A DNA stretch of 38,999 nt from a virus. Below, piece by piece: positions 3,724-28,174 of this stretch. The DNA is taken from UHGV virus genome UHGV-1350822, one strand, 5' to 3'. The notes beneath the pieces are model-generated. The model ran no database searches. It was not told where the DNA came from and worked only from the letters and a program-made list of their open reading frames with translations. The position numbers and the translations under genes were made by a program. Each line of letters opens with the position of its first letter. Position 1 is the stretch's first letter.

Positions 3724-3740
3724 CGGAAAGCAACGGATGG

Positions 3741-4034
3741 TTAGCTGCTGTCTTTTTTATATAGCTCCTTGAGCGTATCAAAGACAATTTTCTTAACCAT
3801 ATCAGATTGTTGTTCTGCCATACGCTCTGCATCGTCAATGTAAACAGATGCAGAGCTTTGTTTAGCCAATGATTCTTCAATCGCTGCAATTATCTCTGAG
3901 TTCAGCGACCTGTTATTCATCTTCGCACGCTGCTTAATTTTCGCGTGGAGTTCATGCGGAAGTCTCAAGTGAAACTGCGCCTCGTCGTATTTGCTGTACA
4001 TCCTTGATGCCTCACCAGTTGGGTGGAATGGCAT
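3741..4034 (-). CDS. mnt: Mnt-like ribbon-helix-helix repressor (Arc/MetJ family)
   Basis: C-terminal region ...NDAERMAEQQSDMVKKIVFDTLKELYKK matches P22 Mnt as recalled; N-terminal RHH segment; alternative start ATG at 4001. Confidence 0.8.
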   Translation of the reverse strand: MPFHPTGEASRMYSKYDEAQFHLRLPHELHAKIKQRAKMNNRSLNSEIIAAIEESLAKQSSASVYIDDAERMAEQQSDMVKKIVFDTLKELYKKDSS

Positions 4035-4122
4035 CGTAACCTACTGGATAAATACTCAATAGTACCATTTCGGTATGCAATCACATCATGGTTGCATCAT
4101 ATCATTCGTCTGGAGCAATGAA

Positions 4123-6321
4123 ATGTCAGATATCACCGCAAATGTTGTGGTAAGCATGCCTTCGCAACTCTTCACTATGGCGCGTTCTTTTAAAGCAGTT
4201 GCCAATGGTAAAATTTATATCGGTAAAATTGACGCTGACCCCGTAAATTCAGAAAACCAGATTCAGGTTTATATAGAGAACGAAGACGGCTCTCACGTTC
4301 CTGTTTCGCAACCAATAATCATTAACGCTGCCGGATATCCGGTATATAACGGACAGATTGCCAAGTTCGTAACTGTGCAAGGCCATTCCATGGCTGTATA
4401 TGATGCGTATGGTTCGCAGCAGTTCTATTTTCCCAATGTGCTGAAGTATGATCCCGATCAGTTTAGCCAGCGAATGGAGAATGTTCCTGACATCCATACC
4501 TTAATGAGCGAGCCTGCTGGGAATCACACATTAAATGTAATTGGATACGTACCAGGAACCAACTTTGGCGGCGGGCAGTTTTACTGGGATGCCAGCATGC
4601 CTAAATCTCAGCACAACGGTATCACCATATTTAGCCCCACAGTTCCGTGGGATGGTTCGTATGCTGAGCTCGCTGCTTTCCTTGCGGGAACTGGTGAGAG
4701 TGATGGTGGTGGCTCTGGTTGCTGGATCCGTTCGAATTGTGTGCTCGATGGCATACATACAGTTTGGGCTGGACATGATATTAACGGAGTGCATGATTCA
4801 ACGGCATCGGTTAACGCTTGTATATCAAAATTTGGTGGTGTTAGAGCAATACGTTTTAGCGCCGGTGAGATAAAGTTTAATTACCAAATCAGCCAGCAAT
4901 ATCATGACTCTGCAGGTGTTATACGTAAAACAGCAATTGTAATTAATGGTAAAAATAATTTATTTGTTTACGCAGATAATGATGTAAATATAAATACAGA
5001 TGGAAATGGTGAGGCTGAGCGTGTTTGCTTTGGTTTATTCAACTGCAAAAACTTTAAATTTAATGGTATAAAGTTAAACCAGTCATGCACAAATTTTTCA
5101 ACTGGACCTTCAGATACCACGTTTACCCCTCAAGAGAATTGGTTTGGTTTCGCACTTGAGGGGAGTAGTGGATCTATTAATGATATTGACGTATTGGCTG
5201 CAAGAATCTTTGTAATGGCAGATGCTGATGGTGACGGTGCTATACCAAATGAGGATATAACTCTTAGCAATGTAAGGACTGATTTGGTAACAAATTATAC
5301 ATTTTTCACTAAAAATCTTAATGGAATTGCTAAGATGATTGACTGCCAAACGTACAGAACAGGCAGAAAATGGCATACTTTTGGTGAAGATTTTGCGTGC
5401 TCAGCAAGAACAAAATATTTAATTGCAGAAAGAAATCACTTTATAAGCCCTATAAGTATTCAGTCTAGGATTACTCCTTGGGGGGTGACTGGTGGTGCAG
5501 TTATATCGAATAACATCAAAACAGGACAAGGAATATTCGTTGAGATAGGAGGTGAATCTAACGGTGTTGCAGCGCAGAATGTTGTTATTGATAGCAATAT
5601 AAGCATTGGGGATCAGAACGAGGATGGCACATTTTCATCTCATATTCTAATTATCTGGAATGGTAGTAATGACTACTCAACATCATTCAATGGAATTAAA
5701 ATAACAAAAAATACATTTAAAGGCGGTGGTTATGCCATAAATGATTATGCTGAAACTCAGATGTCTGCATATTGTTATGGACTTGTGATTGAAAACAACC
5801 AGTTTGATAGAACTGATGCCGTAAAAGTAACAATGCCCACATGGAGAAAATCTATATACCGAGGGAATAAGTCATATTTTGTTCATGGCAATACAGGTTG
5901 TGAAATTGGTGGTTATGCTCCAATTATTTCTGACAACGACTTTGATTCTACATATCTAGTATCAACTTCGGGTGTGCGTATCGATGAACCAGTTATTGAA
6001 AATAATGAGTTTAGTAACACTTTAAACTCACCAGTAAATCAACTTATTGACTGGCCTAGTTTTGCTGGAATGATATATAGAGGAAACAGATACACGTTTT
6101 CAATTAAGAAATTTAGAGATAACGCAGATATGGTTTCCTGTGGTTGGCGTTTTGCCGATGTGTCTGCTGGAATAGACACTGCTCCTACTACAACATACCC
6201 TGGGAAAGTGCTGATAAATATAGGCGATATGATTCACAATGCAGGTACTCCTGCATCAGGAACAAACTGGGCATGGTATGGTCTTGGAAACAATACATAT
6301 GGTAATCTTAATATAGCGTAG
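4123..6321 (+). CDS. Tailspike: P22-type N-terminal head-binding domain fused to a distinct beta-helix receptor-binding/depolymerase domain
   Basis: [11 protein letters not shown]...[11 protein letters not shown]...[13 protein letters not shown]...LKYDPDQ matches the P22 gp9 N-terminus; remainder is Asn/Gly-rich repeats typical of a right-handed beta-helix; GGAG RBS before ATG 4123 (ORF track start 4075 is probably too early). Confidence 0.85.
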
Positions 6322-6331
6322 CGGAAATCAA

Positions 6332-6349
6332 GCGGGGCCATCGCCCCGC
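6332..6349. terminator. Bidirectional stem-loop terminator between convergent tailspike and acyltransferase genes
   Basis: GCGGGGC-CATC-GCCCCGC 7-bp GC stem with 4-nt loop, T-rich flanks on both strands. Confidence 0.6.
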
Positions 6350-6353
6350 AATG

Positions 6354-7508
6354 TTACTTTTTAATGAATCTCCACTCAAAATTCTTAAAACAGATACAGG
6401 AAATAACGCTACACAGAGATGCAATAAAGGCTATCAAAATTGTGTAATTCACAGTAGACATGCTCGATAGGTTATAGAAATTATTTATTGTTCTCATTAC
6501 TATAGCCATGATAGGCAAATGCAGCAAATAAAGACTATAACTTGCCTCACCTAAATAAACTAATGATTTTATTTTAAATATTTTTGGTTTAGTTATAAGT
6601 ACCATTATAAATAGTAATGAAATGCATGCAAATCTGATTCGTCCATAGCTGTCTGCGGAAGAGCAGAAGATAACAAAAATAGCTATGAAAGAAATGAATG
6701 AGAATATCCAATATTTATCATCAATGTTAACATAAGATTTATTGAATATATATGCACCTAAGGCGCCAACTATAAAATATGGCCACAAAACAAATTCTGT
6801 CATAAAGTCTCTTGCCGCAAGTAACATTACTGCGGAAATGGCAAACATACCATATCTCTTGCTTGCGATGGCAATCGATAATAGAGGGAAAATTAAATAA
6901 AACCTCCATTCATACGGTAGAGTCCATATCACCGCATTTAATCCTGATGCGTTAAAAGAGCCAATGAAGATTTCTGTGCCCAAAAATCCAAACCCAAAAA
7001 AATTTAGGAAGCTTGAAAAATCAACAAAGTTAAGCCTTGCTGAACTGCCGGATAATATAATAGCTAAAATTGCCACCAAAAGCGCAGTAAGCATATATAG
7101 AGGAACGAGTCTTTTTATCCGAGCAACATAAAATTTATTCCAGTCAAATGTATTATTTCCTTTTATTAATTTATCAAAGAACAAAAATCCTGTAATGCAA
7201 AAGAAAATCTGTACACCGAAGCTACCCATATTCCCTGTGATGGAGTATTTTGTGAAGTCTATAAATATGGGCTGAACTCCATTGGTAATAATTGTATGAG
7301 CGCCGTGATTAATAAGAACGCTGAACGCAGCTATCCCACGCAATCCGTCTATAAAGAAATACCTGTTACTTGCAAAGTTGATGTGAGAAAAATAGTTATA
7401 TCGTGTCAATAGTGTAATACATAACACAACGGCTAAAAGAGACAAAAAATATAAATAAAGACTTTGCGCCTCAAAGATCATAATGCACACCATGAGATAA
7501 AATTTCAA
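6354..7508 (-). CDS. oac: Acyltransferase-3 family integral membrane protein, likely O-antigen acetyltransferase (lysogenic conversion)
   Basis: About 10 predicted TM helices; N-terminal R...H motif (RGIAAFSVLINH) and FFCITGFLFF motif typical of acyltransferase 3; very AT-rich; sits between tailspike and int as oac does in Sf6. ORF-track start is TTG at 7508; ATG at 7493 is more likely. Confidence 0.8.
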   Translation of the reverse strand: MKFYLMVCIMIFEAQSLYLYFLSLLAVVLCITLLTRYNYFSHINFASNRYFFIDGLRGIAAFSVLINHGAHTIITNGVQPIFIDFTKYSITGNMGSFGVQIFFCITGFLFFDKLIKGNNTFDWNKFYVARIKRLVPLYMLTALLVAILAIILSGSSARLNFVDFSSFLNFFGFGFLGTEIFIGSFNASGLNAVIWTLPYEWRFYLIFPLLSIAIASKRYGMFAISAVMLLAARDFMTEFVLWPYFIVGALGAYIFNKSYVNIDDKYWIFSFISFIAIFVIFCSSADSYGRIRFACISLLFIMVLITKPKIFKIKSLVYLGEASYSLYLLHLPIMAIVMRTINNFYNLSSMSTVNYTILIAFIASLCSVISCICFKNFEWRFIKK

Positions 7509-7726
7509 AGGATTATAGCAGGGCTACCAGCGCAGATCACCAACTCACTGCTCATGATGAGCATTTCTATGATTATAAAATAACTGCAAAAAGTATTACG
7601 TCTAACAGTGAAGCAGATCACAAAGACGATTTATGAACGTTCTGGTGAATTTGATGATTGCCAGGTAATGTGAGGCATGAACGAGGCACACAAAGCTTTG
7701 TACTATCCGATAGTGGTTAAGATCGA

Positions 7727-8884
7727 TCACTCCACCTTTTCATCAATCCAGTCAGCCCACCACTGCATCATTTCTCTGCGCTTATCTAGATACTGAGCAT
7801 GGTTGTAAATCCCGCGCACAGATCCGCCGTTGGCATGTGCAAGTTGCACTTCAATAGCGTCAGCAGGCCATTCGTGCTCGTTCATAATCGTGCTGAATTC
7901 ATGCCTGAATCCGTGACCGCTTTCCAGACCCTCATAGCCGATTTGTTTGATCACAAGCAATACCGCGTTCTCGCAGATTGGCTTTTTCTTATCGTTGCGC
8001 CCGGCAAAAACAAACTCTGATACTGGTTTAGTGATTGAGCTTAGCGTAGTGAGAAGTTCAACCACCTGGTCTGACATCGGGACAACATGAATTTTGCGTC
8101 CCTTCATCACACTGGCGTCGATGGTGATAATCCTGTTTTCAAAATCGACGTTCTTCCATTGCATGGAACGAAGCTCTTTCGTTCTTAGGGCTGTGTAGCG
8201 TAAAACTTTGGTCGCAATGAGCGATACGATACTTCCTGAAAATGTTGCAAGTGCTTTGTTGAATGCCGGGATCTGGTCGGCAGGTAAAAACGGGAAGTTC
8301 TTCTTGCGGTATCCCTTCATGGCGTCAGCAAGGTCAGGTGCCGGGTTATATTTAGCCCTACCAGTGACAATAGCGTAACGAAAAACCTCGCCGCATCTTC
8401 TGCGGGCTTTGTTGGCTCGCTCCATTGCACCGCGATCTTCAAATCTGCGGATTACTTCCAGCAGTTGCATCGGCTCAATATCCTGAATCTCAAGACCGCC
8501 GATGATGGGTAAAATGTCGTCATCAAACATTTTGGCAAGTTCAGTTGCATAGCCTACTGACCAGACTTGCTTCTTGTGCTCGTACCATTCCTTGTAAATC
8601 GCACTAAATGAATTGTTGCTAGACGAAGACTTTTTCGCCTTTACCGGATCGATGCCAACCGAGATGTCTTTCCTCGCAGTCCATGCCTTATCCCTTGCTT
8701 CCTGCAAAGTCATAAGCGGATATTTTCCGACAGTCAGGATTTTCTCCTTACCGTCAATCTTGTAGCGAAGCTGCCATACCTTTTTCCCTGATACAGGGAC
8801 ATAAAGGTACAGGCCATTACCATCGAGTAGGCGGTATGGTTTTTCTTTCGGCTTTGCTGCTTCAATCTGCTTAACGGTGAGCAT
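7727..8884 (-). CDS. int: Tyrosine integrase, P4/IntS-type (DUF4102 arm-binding N-domain plus catalytic domain)
   Basis: MLTVKQIEAAKPKEKPYRLLDGNGLYLYV N-domain; catalytic residues in HGFRHEF...LAH...Y; ORF track extends to GTG 8920 but ATG 8884 matches the usual IntS-type N-terminus. Confidence 0.9.
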   Translation of the reverse strand: MLTVKQIEAAKPKEKPYRLLDGNGLYLYVPVSGKKVWQLRYKIDGKEKILTVGKYPLMTLQEARDKAWTARKDISVGIDPVKAKKSSSSNNSFSAIYKEWYEHKKQVWSVGYATELAKMFDDDILPIIGGLEIQDIEPMQLLEVIRRFEDRGAMERANKARRRCGEVFRYAIVTGRAKYNPAPDLADAMKGYRKKNFPFLPADQIPAFNKALATFSGSIVSLIATKVLRYTALRTKELRSMQWKNVDFENRIITIDASVMKGRKIHVVPMSDQVVELLTTLSSITKPVSEFVFAGRNDKKKPICENAVLLVIKQIGYEGLESGHGFRHEFSTIMNEHEWPADAIEVQLAHANGGSVRGIYNHAQYLDKRREMMQWWADWIDEKVE

Positions 8885-9045
8885 GGGTAAAAATCCGGTG
8901 GGTAAAATTATTTTATCCACTTTTTACCCGTCATGGAGTGCGGCTGTCAACGATCTGACGCGAACCATGACGAACCGTGAATATACGTAAGGCTTGATAT
9001 TCAGGGGATTTTGCGGACTGGTACGGATGGGAGCGAACTGATAAA

Positions 9046-9084
9046 TGGTGTCCCCTGCAGACATCTACTTGACGAGGCAGGGGA
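9046..9084 (-). other. Candidate attP core: 15 nt identical to the 3' end of tRNA-Arg (argW) including CCA, inside an 8-bp inverted repeat
   Basis: 9046-9060 TGGTGTCCCCTGCAG is the reverse complement of CTGCAGGGGACACCA (argW 3' end as I recall it); inverted repeat TCCCCTGC(9051-58)/GCAGGGGA(9077-84); about 161 nt upstream of int ATG. Confidence 0.5.
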
Positions 9085-9133
9085 TTGATTTGAATGGTGT
9101 TTTTTAGATGTGAGAAATATTTTACCCGCTATT

Positions 9134-9334
9134 TTACCCATTGGCGCGGCTTAAGAGCTTATTTTTGAATTCACAATGGTCACGATATAACCATCTTGCT
9201 CGCCCGTGGATAACTTTGGCTTTTGGCAGGTCGCCGGACTTAATCCGGTCGTAGATGAAGGTTTTACCGAAGCCAGTATCAGCCATGATGAATTTCAAAT
9301 CAACCAGTGAATCAGGTTGTAGTTCGTGTTGCAT
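9134..9334 (-). CDS. xis: Excisionase / AlpA-family small DNA-binding protein (TorI-like)
   Basis: 66-aa protein with winged-helix AlpA/Xis character; immediately upstream of int and attP; GGAG RBS. Confidence 0.75.
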   Translation of the reverse strand: MQHELQPDSLVDLKFIMADTGFGKTFIYDRIKSGDLPKAKVIHGRARWLYRDHCEFKNKLLSRANG

Positions 9335-9365
9335 GAGTGCTATCTCCGAATAGGGAATCGAACCT

Positions 9366-9389
9366 GCAAATCAGGCAATAAAAAACCGC
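9366..9389 (-). terminator. Rho-independent terminator (leftward transcript) upstream of xis
   Basis: Stem CCGCC/GGCGG with loop on the minus strand, followed by a TTTTTTATT run. Confidence 0.6.
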
Positions 9390-9442
9390 CATCAGGCGGC
9401 TTGGTGTTCTTTCAGTTCTTCAATTCGAATGTTGGTTACGTC

Positions 9443-9754
9443 TTATTCGATGCGCACTCCTGGTATTTCTCCTTTTGATATTGCTAAGTCATAAATTTGC
9501 GCGGCACTATATCCATCCCGCATCCATGAATCTAAGGCGCGAACAGCCTCGCTACGCTTTTTATCTTCTCTCTCATTTTTGATATCAACGAGGACATCAA
9601 CGCAATTAAGGCAAATGTGGATTTTGTCCTTACATTCGATCATGGCGGCTTTACCATGATTTCCGCCACACAGTGAGCATAAATCTTCAGGGTCTGTCTG
9701 GTATTTCTGTAACGTTAGATGGTTGAATGTTGAACAGGCCATAATCATCTCCAT
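9443..9754 (-). CDS. Hypothetical protein with Cys-x2-C...C-x2-C zinc-ribbon-like motif
   Basis: 103-aa ORF in the leftward operon; CSLCGG...CLNC motif. Confidence 0.5.
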   Translation of the reverse strand: MEMIMACSTFNHLTLQKYQTDPEDLCSLCGGNHGKAAMIECKDKIHICLNCVDVLVDIKNEREDKKRSEAVRALDSWMRDGYSAAQIYDLAISKGEIPGVRIE

Positions 9755-9813
9755 AAAACAAAACTCGCCGTAGCGAGTTCAGATAAAAGAAATCCCCGCG
9801 AGTGCGAGGATTG

Positions 9814-10098
9814 TTATTCATTGCTGATATTCACCTTTATCGCGAACACCTTTACCGGTTTATCACCGAAGTGCGGATGTGTGATTGTTTTGATTTCATA
9901 TCCACCATACGGAACATCAATTCTGCGACTGGAATCGTCGCGCTTCGGATATCCCTTTGTGATAATCAGGCGGTCATACTTCCGGAACATAATTCGCTTT
10001 TTCCAGTAATCATTACACAGGCGATACTCTTCCGTTTTCTCGTATGACTTCATCTGGTCGAAATATTCACCTTTAACGGCAAGTTGCAGGTTAGCCAC
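9814..10098 (-). CDS. Hypothetical early-left (Ea-region) protein
   Basis: AGGAGG RBS then GTG at 10098; the ORF-track ATG at 10227 lies inside the upstream gene, so the shorter form is more likely. Confidence 0.5.
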   Translation of the reverse strand: MANLQLAVKGEYFDQMKSYEKTEEYRLCNDYWKKRIMFRKYDRLIITKGYPKRDDSSRRIDVPYGGYEIKTITHPHFGDKPVKVFAIKVNISNE

Positions 10099-10798
10099 GG
10101 TTAACCTCCTGCTTAGGTGCTGCTGGCATTTCACGCCAGTGCGTAACTGAGTGCGGATCCGGATATTCGGTGCCATCATCCCAGCGATTACCATTCCACA
10201 TTGCAGACCACATCTCACCGTCTTCATACATGACCATTACCGGAATTAACTTATCCGGCATTCGCTCACTACAGCTTATCCAACCATCCGGAGTTACCGG
10301 AGAGTTGCCATTCACAAGGTCAGCTCGAACATATAGCGTGTCATCATGGTGCTGATTGTGGCTGCACCACGTTAATTCGCTTAACTCGCCATCTTCTGGC
10401 CATACTCCAGCCGTTTGCAGCCAGATATGGGCTGGCGCATCTTGGCAAGGTGTATTAACTGGCAACTTGCAAGTTTGGCTTACAGGTTCGGCTTCCAGTT
10501 CTGCTATGCGCTTTTTTGCTGTTTCCAGCTCGCCCAGCAGCGCCAAGACGGTAGCCGGATTGGCTGCGGCGATGAATTCAGCGTTGGCCTGCTGTTCCAT
10601 TTGGAAATCTTCATCGAAACCGCTTTCTGGATGCGCTCCTTCAATTCTGCAAATAGGAATATATCCAGCAACTTCACGATGAATTAGTGCATCATCACCA
10701 TCAAATCGGCCCTTTCCATATTCGAGCGACCACACACCACACGTTGCTTTCTCTGCCTTTTCACGCAGTGCCTGATAGTCAATTTTCATTCTCGCCAT
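10091..10798 (-). CDS. Ead/Ea22-like protein with C-terminal DUF551-like domain
   Basis: 235-aa ORF; N-terminal coiled-coil and Trp-rich C-terminal region typical of Ea22/DUF551 prophage proteins (recalled family, not searched). Confidence 0.55.
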   Translation of the reverse strand: MARMKIDYQALREKAEKATCGVWSLEYGKGRFDGDDALIHREVAGYIPICRIEGAHPESGFDEDFQMEQQANAEFIAAANPATVLALLGELETAKKRIAELEAEPVSQTCKLPVNTPCQDAPAHIWLQTAGVWPEDGELSELTWCSHNQHHDDTLYVRADLVNGNSPVTPDGWISCSERMPDKLIPVMVMYEDGEMWSAMWNGNRWDDGTEYPDPHSVTHWREMPAAPKQEVNRG

Positions 10799-11430
10799 TC
10801 TTCACAGTTGTAATCACTACAGCCTTCAAAATCATATGGGCTGTACTGCCAGGTTATTTTTCCGCAATGCGGACAATTCCAACGCACCTTCCCGCTTCGC
10901 GACTTCTTTCTTCTGTTCTGCTCTTTCAACCAGTCAGGCATGACCAAACCTGCGCCCTGAACCATTGTTCTGCGATTAAAGTTATTGATATTGAACGTCC
11001 GGCGCTTTGCTGCATCAGCAATGGAAAATGGCAACCAAACTATTCCTGGTTCGTTTTTGTTGGCGACGCTAAAGATGGTCGCTTTACTGAAGTCATCTGT
11101 TGGCAATCCACCGTGTTGAAGCCAGTAAACATCGTTGCCGTTCCAGCTACCTTTTTTGTAGGCCACATACGCAGTGCAATCTGACTCAATCAGGCTTTCT
11201 GTAGGGATGTACTGGCAATCAACGTGCCACACAGCCATTGCATCCACGCTATCAGCGCAAACAGGCTGATCGATATCTCGACCACAATTCCAGGCTTTTT
11301 GGGCTTCTTCCTGCGTGTAAACATGTGCTCGATCGATATCAGAACTGTAACCATTACCGTTATGGCAATGGAATGAGGCGTTATTACCCACAGTTTCACG
11401 CAAGCACATCATGTAAAAACGGTTACTCAC
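10786..11430 (-). CDS. Hypothetical protein with C-terminal zinc ribbon
   Basis: 214-aa ORF; CPHCGK...C...C motif; overlapping starts and stops with neighbours. Confidence 0.5.
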   Translation of the reverse strand: MSNRFYMMCLRETVGNNASFHCHNGNGYSSDIDRAHVYTQEEAQKAWNCGRDIDQPVCADSVDAMAVWHVDCQYIPTESLIESDCTAYVAYKKGSWNGNDVYWLQHGGLPTDDFSKATIFSVANKNEPGIVWLPFSIADAAKRRTFNINNFNRRTMVQGAGLVMPDWLKEQNRRKKSRSGKVRWNCPHCGKITWQYSPYDFEGCSDYNCEEWRE

Positions 11431-25172: not shown

Positions 25173-25272
25173 NNNNNNNNNNNNNNNNNNNNNNNNNNNN
25201 NNNNNNNNNNNNNNNNNNNNNNNNNNNNNNNNNNNNNNNNNNNNNNNNNNNNNNNNNNNNNNNNNNNNNNNN
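25173..25272. other. Assembly gap (100 Ns) flanked by 55-bp duplicated sequence
   Basis: 25118-25172 is identical to 25273-25327; typical scaffold join across a k=55 overlap. Confidence 0.95.
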
Positions 25273-28074: not shown

Positions 28075-28174
28075 NNNNNNNNNNNNNNNNNNNNNNNNNN
28101 NNNNNNNNNNNNNNNNNNNNNNNNNNNNNNNNNNNNNNNNNNNNNNNNNNNNNNNNNNNNNNNNNNNNNNNNNN
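28075..28174. other. Assembly gap (100 Ns) flanked by 55-bp duplicated sequence
   Basis: 28020-28074 is identical to 28175-28229. Confidence 0.95.

Follow-up and report, generated by a model that had tools for sequence, protein, structure and literature searches.

A probable lysogenic-conversion O-acyltransferase gene beside the tailspike gene of an Sf6/HK620-like Escherichia coli phage

Acetylation of the O-antigen by phage-encoded enzymes alters serotype, phage susceptibility and antibody recognition. Reports on Sf6, phiV10 and BTP1 state that the modification blocks the tailspike of the very phage that encodes it, or infection by that phage (PMC9558356; phiV10 record), and according to the phiV10 record its Oac acetylates the O-antigen and confers superinfection immunity. 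The concept is already textbook knowledge from these three phages, so that a further example represents an incremental advance. In Sf6, a plus-strand tailspike gene is followed by a hairpin terminator, a minus-strand acyltransferase gene (oac) with its promoter, a minus-strand IntS-type integrase gene, attP and a TorI-like xis. The oacB gene of Sf101 (Lederbergvirus) is also convergent with the tailspike gene, and phiV10 (Uetakevirus, infecting E. coli O157) carries its oac in the same slot, in the order holin, oac, convergent tailspike. A functional analogue, gtrABC, occupies this slot in P22-like prophages, although its proteins and chemistry (glucosylation via Und-P-Glc) differ.

We analyzed a window of 38,999 nucleotides (the whole stretch of DNA, virus genome UHGV-1350822) from an Sf6/HK620-like E. 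coli phage. Its backbone is ~97% identical to that of Sf6 over large parts, and it shares the Sf6 layout, with an acyltransferase gene between the tailspike and the integrase. This gene is probably a lysogenic-conversion moron encoding an 11-helix inner-membrane O-acyltransferase that consists of the acyltransferase-3 (AT3) domain only and masks the O-antigen, probably O6, from the phage's own tailspike. The acyl group would most likely be acetyl. We infer expression, the acetyl donor, the O-antigen (O6) acceptor and the exclusion of phage from the comparisons described below.

The open reading frame listing places the gene on the minus strand at 6354–7508, with 384 aa counted from a TTG at 7508, and the initial annotation had extended it to 7545. 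Its end at 6354 held, but its start did not: the protein has 375 aa in the RefSeq entry for E. coli W (WFL_RS13015), as have six close homologues, which speaks against both a start at TTG 7508 and a gene reaching 7545. Because these proteins agree in length, the true start is most likely the ATG at 7481 (coding sequence 6354–7481, consistent with the open reading frame, PF01757, phrog_3333 and homologue lengths); an in-frame ATG at 7493 (379 aa) is a possible alternative. The longer interval to 7545 corresponds to the coding sequence, ending at 7481 or 7493, plus the promoter. Comparison with an 89%-identical homologue gave a dN/dS of 0.11; the gene is under purifying selection.

As the initial annotation had stated, the gene is convergent with the tailspike gene. 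The two stop codons, at 6321 (tailspike) and 6354 (acyltransferase), are separated by a GC-rich hairpin (GCGGGGC-GAUG-GCCCCGC, 6332–6349), which was identified by a terminator scan of both strands and begins 4 nt past the acyltransferase stop codon. It contains seven GC pairs, with a minimum free energy of -17.1 kcal/mol on the minus strand and -18.8 kcal/mol (z -3.1) on the plus strand, and is followed by poor T-tracts on both strands. In all homologues examined, and in Sf6 oac, a GC hairpin unrelated in sequence comes after the stop codon. The hairpin is likely a bidirectional terminator for both genes. Thus, the terminator of its own that is expected of a moron is found here as a hairpin with a weak T-tract.

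The initial annotation had pointed to acyltransferase-3 motifs and had suggested a profile search, a comparison with Sf6 Oac and OafA, and a calculation of GC and codon-usage deviation. The profile search bore out the assignment: the protein matched PF01757 with an E value of 6.4e-33 (114.6 bits against a cut-off of 31; profile positions 3–320 of 326) and phrog_3333, “O-acetyltransferase,” with 1.1e-43, and the catalytic motifs are intact. Invariant stretches comprise R48-x10-H59, FFCITG at 93–98, R121xxR124, WTLxxE at 186–191, SYSxYLxH at 314–321, and E369. Residues R48, H59, F93, F101, R121 and R124 are invariant across 47 homologues, as is the whole of R121-I-K-R124; R48/H59 align with R47/H58 of OacB, and F93-F94-C-I-T97-G98 aligns with FFSISG of Oac. 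The R/K-x10-H motif (as defined in PMC7448272), RxxR and the phenylalanine of FFxISG are essential in OafA, Oac and OacB (PMC7448272, PMC8952252).

An AF2 model of the protein (pLDDT 90.1, pTM 0.90) has 11 long transmembrane helices, in which an N-terminal helix (5–27) precedes a core of ten, the number that defines AT3 proteins. The 375 residues form a single, all-helical Pfam domain, and no SGNH or other periplasmic domain is fused to it. A Foldseek search of the PDB with the model returned nothing at E < 0.001, and a sequence search of the PDB gave no match; to our knowledge, no AT3 structure has been solved. The only folds retrieved by Foldseek at high probability were HGSNAT and GWT1, and these matches were weak. 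A 2025 paper (PMC12423673) unites HGSNAT with AT3 proteins in a TmAT superfamily.

Sf6 Oac is likewise AT3-only, and its R-x10-H, FFxI(S/T)G and RxxR motifs align with those of the window protein. However, identity between the two is only 22% (pairwise E 4e-9). With 333 aa, Oac is without the extra N-terminal helix, and it acts on a different tailspike receptor, the S. flexneri rhamnose backbone. The best characterized relative is OacB of Sf101, with 30% identity (E 9e-29). Like the window protein in its model, OacB is predicted to span the membrane with 11 helices, the extra one at the N terminus. Its critical residues R47, H58, F98, R116 and R119 are kept, whereas conservation does not extend to W71 and S146, also critical, which lie in periplasmic loops. 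Sf101 differs further in the O-antigen of its host and in its integrase gene, which lies on the strand opposite oacB with a small ORF between. With phiV10 Oac there was no detectable pairwise similarity (E 1.8), which makes it a non-orthologous occupant of the same slot. Salmonella OafA and OafB share the AT3 core and the essential residues (PMC7448272), but these enzymes also have an 11th helix and a periplasmic SGNH domain, by which the final transfer is carried out, while the window protein is without SGNH and carries its extra helix at the N terminus. Orthology to a characterized member was therefore not found; the window protein is a family-level homologue, a sequence-distant representative with no more than 30% identity to any studied enzyme. 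Work on OafB has led to a model in which acetyl-CoA reaches through the AT3 pore (PMC9833829). In the window protein, acetyl-CoA would enter a cytoplasm-facing cavity lined by R48/H59, FFCITG and R121xxR124.

Many glycans are acylated by AT3 proteins, and the sequence does not tell which of them is the acceptor here. It is conceivable that this enzyme acts on a glycan other than the O-antigen, such as enterobacterial common antigen, colanic acid or capsule, osmoregulated periplasmic glucans, or peptidoglycan; the family includes such members (PMC9558356), the identities to characterized acetylases are low, and a profile search of NCBIfam gave no match, hence none to an O-antigen-acetylase-specific model. 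We consider this highly unlikely. Distant homologues lie beside tailspikes and beside a tail-fibre assembly gene, one stands at the end of an O-antigen cluster in Pseudomonas, and the recurrent neighbors are receptor-binding proteins of O-antigen-specific phage types. The slot is common to three proven O-antigen acetylases and to gtrABC, and E. coli W, which carries the gene, reportedly makes no K antigen. Together, the oac slot of Sf6 and phiV10, the recurrent adjacency to tailspikes and tail fibres, and the homologue in an O-antigen cluster support a link between the acyltransferase and the phage receptor.

The TATAAT reported upstream of the gene on the minus strand is present at 7517–7512, and a preceding TGC gives an extended -10 element, TGCTATAAT (7520–7512). 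With a -35-like GTGATC (7540–7535) and a 17-nt spacer, it forms a putative sigma-70 promoter (7512–7540, minus strand) with a predicted transcript start near 7505. TGCTATAAT is the sole occurrence of TGNTATAAT on either strand of the window, where chance would give a mean of 1.22 in 39 kb; what raises it above chance is its distance from the ATG at 7481, with TATAAT 31 nt upstream, and its conservation in homologues. GTGAyC-17-TGnTAnAAT occurs at -39 to -41 from the ATG in homologue loci L002, L006, L009 and L013 (TGCTAACAT), and TGATAAAAT occurs at -50 in L016 and L018. The background chance of such an element is 0.02–0.055 per 25-nt zone. Apart from the element, the regions upstream of homologues beyond L006 could not be aligned. 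These data point to a putative sigma-70 promoter of the acyltransferase gene's own, conserved in position among diverged homologues.

Three other elements near the start were discarded. A second TATAAT (7577–7572) and a perfect palindrome (TGCTCATcATGAGCA, 7549–7563, 29 nt upstream of the -10 element) are identical in L002 and lost in L006, which excludes both as core elements; as an RNA hairpin, the palindrome is weak (-6.5 to -7.4 kcal/mol, z -1.15). The best nearby site in a generic promoter scan, TTGAAA-17-CATTAT (7508–7480), would start transcripts inside the coding sequence.

Alternatively, the acyltransferase might have no independent promoter and be the tail of an intS transcript or silent cargo. 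The integrase gene is its immediate upstream neighbor on that strand, no convincing terminator separates the two, the proposed -35 matches the consensus at only three of six positions, and the generic scan showed no enrichment (8 sites versus 7.8 in shuffles). Yet the homologue in phiV10-like prophages lies between a holin gene that diverges from it and the convergent tailspike gene; it has no co-oriented upstream gene, so a promoter of its own is necessary there, and it keeps TGCTATAAT at the same distance. Recurrence of the element in upstream regions that cannot be aligned, joint movement of the upstream 150 bp with the gene, and a dN/dS that speaks against a silent gene all count against this alternative, which we judge to be quite improbable. 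Under the preferred reading, transcription in the lysogen would start near 7505 from GTGATC-17-TGCTATAAT, to which read-through from intS could add, and would end at the hairpin shared with the tailspike gene.

The statement that the gene is AT-rich relative to the backbone was confirmed. Its coding sequence has 33.2% GC, whereas the whole window has 46.9% and equally sized backbone windows have 47.6% (sd 3.0; z = -4.8), and it is the lowest in GC among 758 sliding windows of 1128 bp. The median GC3 of 26 long ORFs is 0.511, while the acyltransferase gene has 0.335. The receptor-binding part of the tailspike (4474–6321) is also low (38.8% GC, GC3 0.316), and the AT-rich island therefore spans ~5000–7500, wider than the acyltransferase itself. 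O-antigen-related genes are usually low in GC. A composition that differs from the flanks and a slot that is polymorphic among related phages are as expected of a moron. The low GC at 25.0–25.5 kb and 28.0–28.5 kb suggested additional morons, but each of these stretches includes 100-N scaffold gaps, which deflate the GC fraction there.

The tailspike gene (4123–6321, plus strand) encodes a P22-type head-binding domain to ~4473 (PF09008, E 6.9e-66) followed by a receptor-binding domain (4474–6321) that is 96% identical in amino acids to that of an 811-aa tailspike of phiV10-like prophages. A single blastn segment from 4543 to 7632 (94.3% identity over 3090 bp, 36.9% GC) matched L002 and L004, whose phiV10-like backbone is otherwise unrelated to that of the window and carries the 89%-identical acyltransferase in the phiV10 oac slot. 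This segment contains the receptor-binding domain, the terminator, the acyltransferase and ~150 bp upstream of it, and is 83% identical to L006–L008; the pairing of tailspike and acyltransferase persists at 90%/75% and 63%/70% amino acid identity. Of the initial proposal of horizontal acquisition from a low-GC donor, horizontal movement is demonstrated by a 94% segment in an unrelated backbone, but no low-GC donor was identified: all acyltransferase relatives found were from Enterobacterales or Pseudomonas. A search of 50,697 phage records at the DNA level did not recover the gene, and OacB was the sole protein-level match in the phage collection.

The pair is not strictly co-inherited. Relative to the L002 module, dS is 0.53 for the acyltransferase and 0.06 for the tailspike, and strain E423 carries the same tailspike domain (98.3% nucleotide identity) with gtrABC in the acyltransferase slot. 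The enzyme might leave the phage's own tailspike unblocked and serve mainly against other phages, in immune recognition or in colonization, the adjacency reflecting a permissive slot at the prophage end. Consistent with this, the cargo found in the slot differs between phages and is unrelated (Oac in Sf6, OacB in Sf101, gtrABC in E423, and Kapi1 hyp24), and the tailspike and acyltransferase alleles recombine independently. However, self-blocking of tailspike or infection has been reported for Sf6, phiV10 and BTP1 (PMC9558356; phiV10 record), and tailspike domain and gene crossed genera on one 3.1-kb segment; we regard this alternative as unlikely. We favor masking from the phage's own tailspike. 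Like oac and oacB, the gene is encoded in a temperate phage beside a receptor-binding protein and an int-att region. Tentatively, and with slightly less than even confidence, we speculate that the unit of transfer is a 3.1-kb “recognize-and-mask” cassette moved between the unrelated podovirus genera Lederbergvirus and Uetakevirus, with the corollary that E. coli W, a strain used in laboratories and in industry, displays prophage-acetylated O6. If so, one recombination event would bring a new host specificity together with the matching self-exclusion. We found no description of a prophage-acetylated O6 variant in E. coli W.

Among complete E. coli genomes, the acyltransferase gene was found only in strain W. 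Strain W is of O6 genotype, with O6 wzx/wzy in its O-antigen cluster, and that cluster contains no acetyltransferase gene. Siphoviruses, with one record named Kagunavirus, have receptor-binding proteins that share 35–42% identity with the tailspike receptor-binding domain, and CFT073 and ATCC 25922 are among the hosts recorded for them. We take both of these hosts to be O6 strains. The O6 antigen is thus a probable target, an assignment that rests on one host lineage and on tailspikes that are 35–42% identical. We propose that the modified O-antigen would no longer be bound or cut by the phage's own tailspike, and that lysogens would therefore become serologically different and be protected from superinfection, both by this phage and by others of the same receptor specificity. 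O6 is a common antigen, also found on uropathogenic strains such as CFT073. If confirmed, the modification would set apart a new subtype of O6, account for lysogens being resistant to O6-specific phages and to reagents based on tailspikes, and provide a clean example of a receptor-binding domain and a masking enzyme travelling together across phage genera.

The integrase gene directly upstream of the acyltransferase (7727–8920, minus strand) encodes an IntS-type tyrosine integrase (PF00589, PF22022, PF13356) and is annotated as intS beside tRNA-Arg (argW) in E. coli W. The window is not the W prophage itself; identity of 99.3% is limited to 3732–9060, and the remainder is 91–98% identical or unmatched. 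Identity to the W chromosome ends at 9060, inside tRNA-Arg, and the order tailspike, acyltransferase, intS, tRNA-Arg is contiguous in W. This excludes an attP between the acyltransferase and int, as is the habit in lambda and P22, and instead places it upstream of int, with an approximate core at 9045–9060 that is identical to the 3' terminus of argW. In the Sf6 record, an attP core is annotated in the corresponding position.

The window is the genome of a P22-type phage (Lederbergvirus), with large blocks 96–97% identical to Sf6/HK620/IME10-like phages and a sequence order that is circular or that of the virion. Two runs of exactly 100 N (25173–25272 and 28075–28174), in which ORF translations are full of X, indicate a gapped scaffold and account for the apparent low-GC dips at 25.0–25.5 kb and 28.0–28.5 kb. 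The acyltransferase ORF occupies 6354–7508 on the minus strand, with a TTG start at 7508 (384 aa). E. coli W has an identical gene, 375 aa long in RefSeq, and all six closest homologues have this length, which makes ATG 7481 the most likely start; an in-frame alternative is ATG 7493. Thus, the gene placed at 6354–7545 by the initial annotation is present, but its upper coordinate was loose. The tailspike gene (4123–6321, plus strand), which carries a PF09008 head-binding domain, is convergent with it as described, and the two stop codons lie 32 nt apart around a GC hairpin with 7 GC pairs (6332–6349). An IntS-type integrase gene (7727–8920, minus strand) lies directly upstream of the acyltransferase gene. 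Just upstream of the tailspike gene and divergent from it is a 97-aa ORF (3741–4034, minus strand) in the position of the E. coli W “Arc family DNA-binding protein” gene; by position, it is a possible immI-region remnant.

Computed GC and GC3 bore out the proposed AT-richness relative to the backbone. The acyltransferase coding sequence has 33.2% GC versus 46.9% for the window (z = −4.8 versus the backbone), the lowest value among 758 sliding windows of equal size. The two lowest GC3 values among 26 long ORFs belong to the tailspike (0.316) and the acyltransferase (0.335); therefore, the AT-rich island, at ∼5000–7500, includes the tailspike receptor-binding domain.

The acyltransferase protein is a member of the acyltransferase-3 (AT3) family, as first proposed, and displays every defining feature we tested. 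It matched PF01757 over the entire profile (E = 6.4e-33) and PHROG 3333, “O-acetyltransferase” (1e-43). In two alignments, with 13 and with 46 relatives, R48-x10-H59, F93/F94-x-I-T97-G98 with F101, R121-x-x-R124, W186-T-L-x-x-E191, S314-Y-S-x-Y-L-x-H321, and E369 were invariant or nearly so. The R/K-x10-H and RxxR residues are essential by mutagenesis in OafA, Oac and OacB, and FFxISG is one of the family’s conserved motifs (PMC7448272, PMC8952252). Five of the seven residues critical in OacB are conserved; W71 and S146, which are not, are both in variable periplasmic loops. An AlphaFold2 model built from a 47-sequence alignment (pLDDT 90.1, pTM 0.90) has 11 long helices, an N-terminal helix (5–27) followed by a ten-helix core, in agreement with the predicted 11-TM topology of OacB. 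A sequence search of the PDB matched no AT3 protein, and Foldseek against the PDB gave only weak matches, the high-probability ones being human HGSNAT and GWT1; a 2025 paper unites HGSNAT with AT3 proteins in a TmAT superfamily (PMC12423673). A dN/dS of 0.11 versus the 89%-identical homologue indicates that the gene is under purifying selection. It is not orthologous to any characterised enzyme.

In each of the closest homologue loci (89%, 75% and 70% identity), the acyltransferase gene is convergent with a tailspike gene. By blastn, window positions 4543–7632 align with loci L002 and L004 in one segment (3,090 bp, 94.3% identity), which covers the receptor-binding domain of the tailspike, the hairpin and the acyltransferase gene with ∼150 bp upstream of it. 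The backbone of these two loci is phiV10-like (Uetakevirus), and their 811-aa tailspike has another N-terminal anchor and lacks the P22 head-binding domain. The tailspike/acyltransferase pairing is kept at 90%/75% amino acid identity in L006–8 and at 63%/70% in L009. The paired genes nevertheless differ in divergence; the tailspike domain has a dS of 0.06 relative to L002, versus 0.53 for the acyltransferase. In another phiV10-like prophage (L003/L005), identity to the window is 98.9% in the tailspike part but only 88% in the acyltransferase part, which puts a recombination breakpoint at the terminator between the two genes. There, an IS with a DDE_Tnp_1 transposase lies between the convergent acyltransferase (6001–7128) and tailspike (8510–10945) genes. 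In E. coli E423 (NZ_CM173464.1, locus positions 5593–10852), a gtrA/gtrB/gtrC glucosylation cassette takes the place of the acyltransferase behind the same receptor-binding domain (98.3% nucleotide identity). These dS values, the L003/L005 mismatch and the E423 replacement show that the tailspike domain and the acyltransferase do not have one common history; the conserved feature is thus a slot for conversion genes, located behind the gene for the receptor-binding protein. Earlier work had already noted that Lederbergvirus and Uetakevirus exchange receptor-binding domains, and also that a modification gene is present “behind the RBP” (PMC10408124). The E423 prophage is degraded, with ISApl1 just upstream of the tailspike gene, beside a tailspike fragment annotated as a pseudogene.

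Other occupants of the same slot are oac of Sf6, oacB of Sf101 and oac of phiV10, whose record notes that Oac acetylates O-antigen and confers superinfection immunity. Among homologues of 36–43% identity, one in a further E. coli lies beside a P22-type tailspike, and those in phiV10/epsilon15-like prophages of E. coli and Morganella adjoin the prophage tailspike. In a Citrobacter myovirus prophage, the neighbours are the genes for tail-fibre assembly and the tail fibre; in one case, the neighbour is an IS. A 37%-identical homologue in Pseudomonas synxantha (L024, 5001–6179) stands at the end of a chromosomal gene cluster of O-antigen type with GT4, epimerase, and WbpL- and WbpM-like genes (domains Glycos_transf_4 and Polysacc_synt_2); thus, the clade has chromosomal as well as prophage-borne members. 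Because of these contexts and the slot’s other occupants, O-antigen is by far the most likely acceptor of the predicted enzyme. Archer et al. 2011 (PMC3032704) describe E. coli W as an O6 strain whose core is of type R1 and whose antigen clusters are intact. Its RefSeq O-antigen cluster has O6-family wzx and wzy annotated and no annotated acetyltransferase. The tailspike domain is 35–42% identical to siphovirus receptor-binding proteins; CFT073 and ATCC 25922, both O6 strains, are among the recorded hosts of these siphoviruses. Since W and these hosts agree, O6 is our best guess for the specific antigen, with a roughly even chance of being correct.

In the AT3 family model, the R-x10-H and RxxR residues line a cavity on the cytoplasmic side; acetyl-CoA enters it and extends across the membrane, so that the acetyl group is presented at the periplasmic face, and AT3-only enzymes hand this group directly to the acceptor sugar (PMC7448272, PMC9833829). 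The protein described here would likewise take acetyl-CoA into such a cavity and across the membrane and, as an AT3-only enzyme, would transfer the acetyl group directly to the sugar on the periplasmic side. The acetylated O-unit would then sterically block the tailspike, as is reported for Sf6 and BTP1 (PMC9558356) and, in the phiV10 record note and PMC11854483, for phiV10. By analogy, we predict that it functions in the same way as Oac, OacB and phiV10 Oac, whose location it occupies; phiV10 Oac has no detectable similarity to it.

At the DNA level, the gene was found in no record of a 50,697-genome phage collection, where the sole protein-level match was Sf101 OacB (27% by tblastn, 30% by BLASTP). 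Five of 5,426 complete E. coli genomes carry it, each at 100% identity: two strain W assemblies, B-766 (an alternative designation of W), and two W-sized assemblies labelled DH5alpha. These last two (NZ_CP026085.1 and NZ_CM135829.1, 4.83 Mb) have a 100% identical prophage region, like strain W. K-12 derivatives are expected to have the CPS-53/KplE1 remnant at argW, and so both are probably mislabelled. It is conceivable, at slightly less than an even chance, both that a single 3.1-kb cassette carries receptor recognition and receptor masking from one phage genus to another and that the O6 antigen of E. coli W is acetylated by its prophage. The window is not itself the W prophage, since only 3732–9060 matches at 99.3% and the remainder is 91–98% identical or unmatched.

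Identity to the W chromosome stops within tRNA-Arg (argW). Gene order in W is late genes, tailspike, acyltransferase, intS, tRNA-Arg; this contiguity places attP upstream of int, with its core at ∼9045–9060, and rules out a site between int and the acyltransferase gene. In Sf6, attP is annotated at the equivalent place. The site falls within 8921–9133, flanked on one side by int and on the other by a 66-aa excisionase-like gene (9134–9334) in the position of the Sf6 “response regulator inhibitor TorI” gene. ARAGORN detected no tRNA gene in the window, consistent with an unintegrated phage form.

The TATAAT previously reported upstream of the start is present at 7517–7512 and is preceded by TGC, giving the extended −10 TGCTATAAT. 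This element begins its approach to ATG 7481 at a distance of 31 nt, and GTGATC is located another 17 nt upstream. Across the two strands of the window together, TGNTATAAT occurs only once; one site is expected by chance, so the argument rests on location and conservation. The arrangement is identical in L002 (89% amino acid identity); L006 (75%) has GTGACC-17-TGCTATAAT despite diverged surrounding upstream DNA, and L009 (70%) has GTGATC-17-TGATACAAT in an upstream region that cannot be aligned. L013 (40%) has TGCTAACAT at an equal distance from the start, while in L016/L018 (36%) TGATAAAAT sits 10 nt farther upstream. With a background for TG.TA...T of only 0.02–0.055 per 25-nt zone, the presence of this putative promoter element in four of five independent lineages is far beyond chance (by our estimate, <1e-4). 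In phiV10-like prophages, the homologue has a divergent holin gene on one side and the tailspike gene, convergent with it, on the other; this layout excludes co-transcription with a neighbour and argues for expression from the putative promoter region. The putative −35 matches at 3/6 positions, and a generic promoter scan showed no enrichment for sites. Every homologue, and Sf6 oac, has a GC-rich hairpin within a few nt of the stop codon; the hairpin sequences are unrelated. The T-tracts that follow the window’s own hairpin (6332–6349) are poor. Nothing between int and the acyltransferase gene resembled a convincing terminator, so read-through from intS may contribute to transcription of the latter. 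A perfect 7-1-7 palindrome, TGCTCATcATGAGCA, lies at 7549–7563, between TATAAT hexamers at 7577–7572 and 7517–7512; it is identical in L002, is not kept in L006, and could be an operator or nothing.
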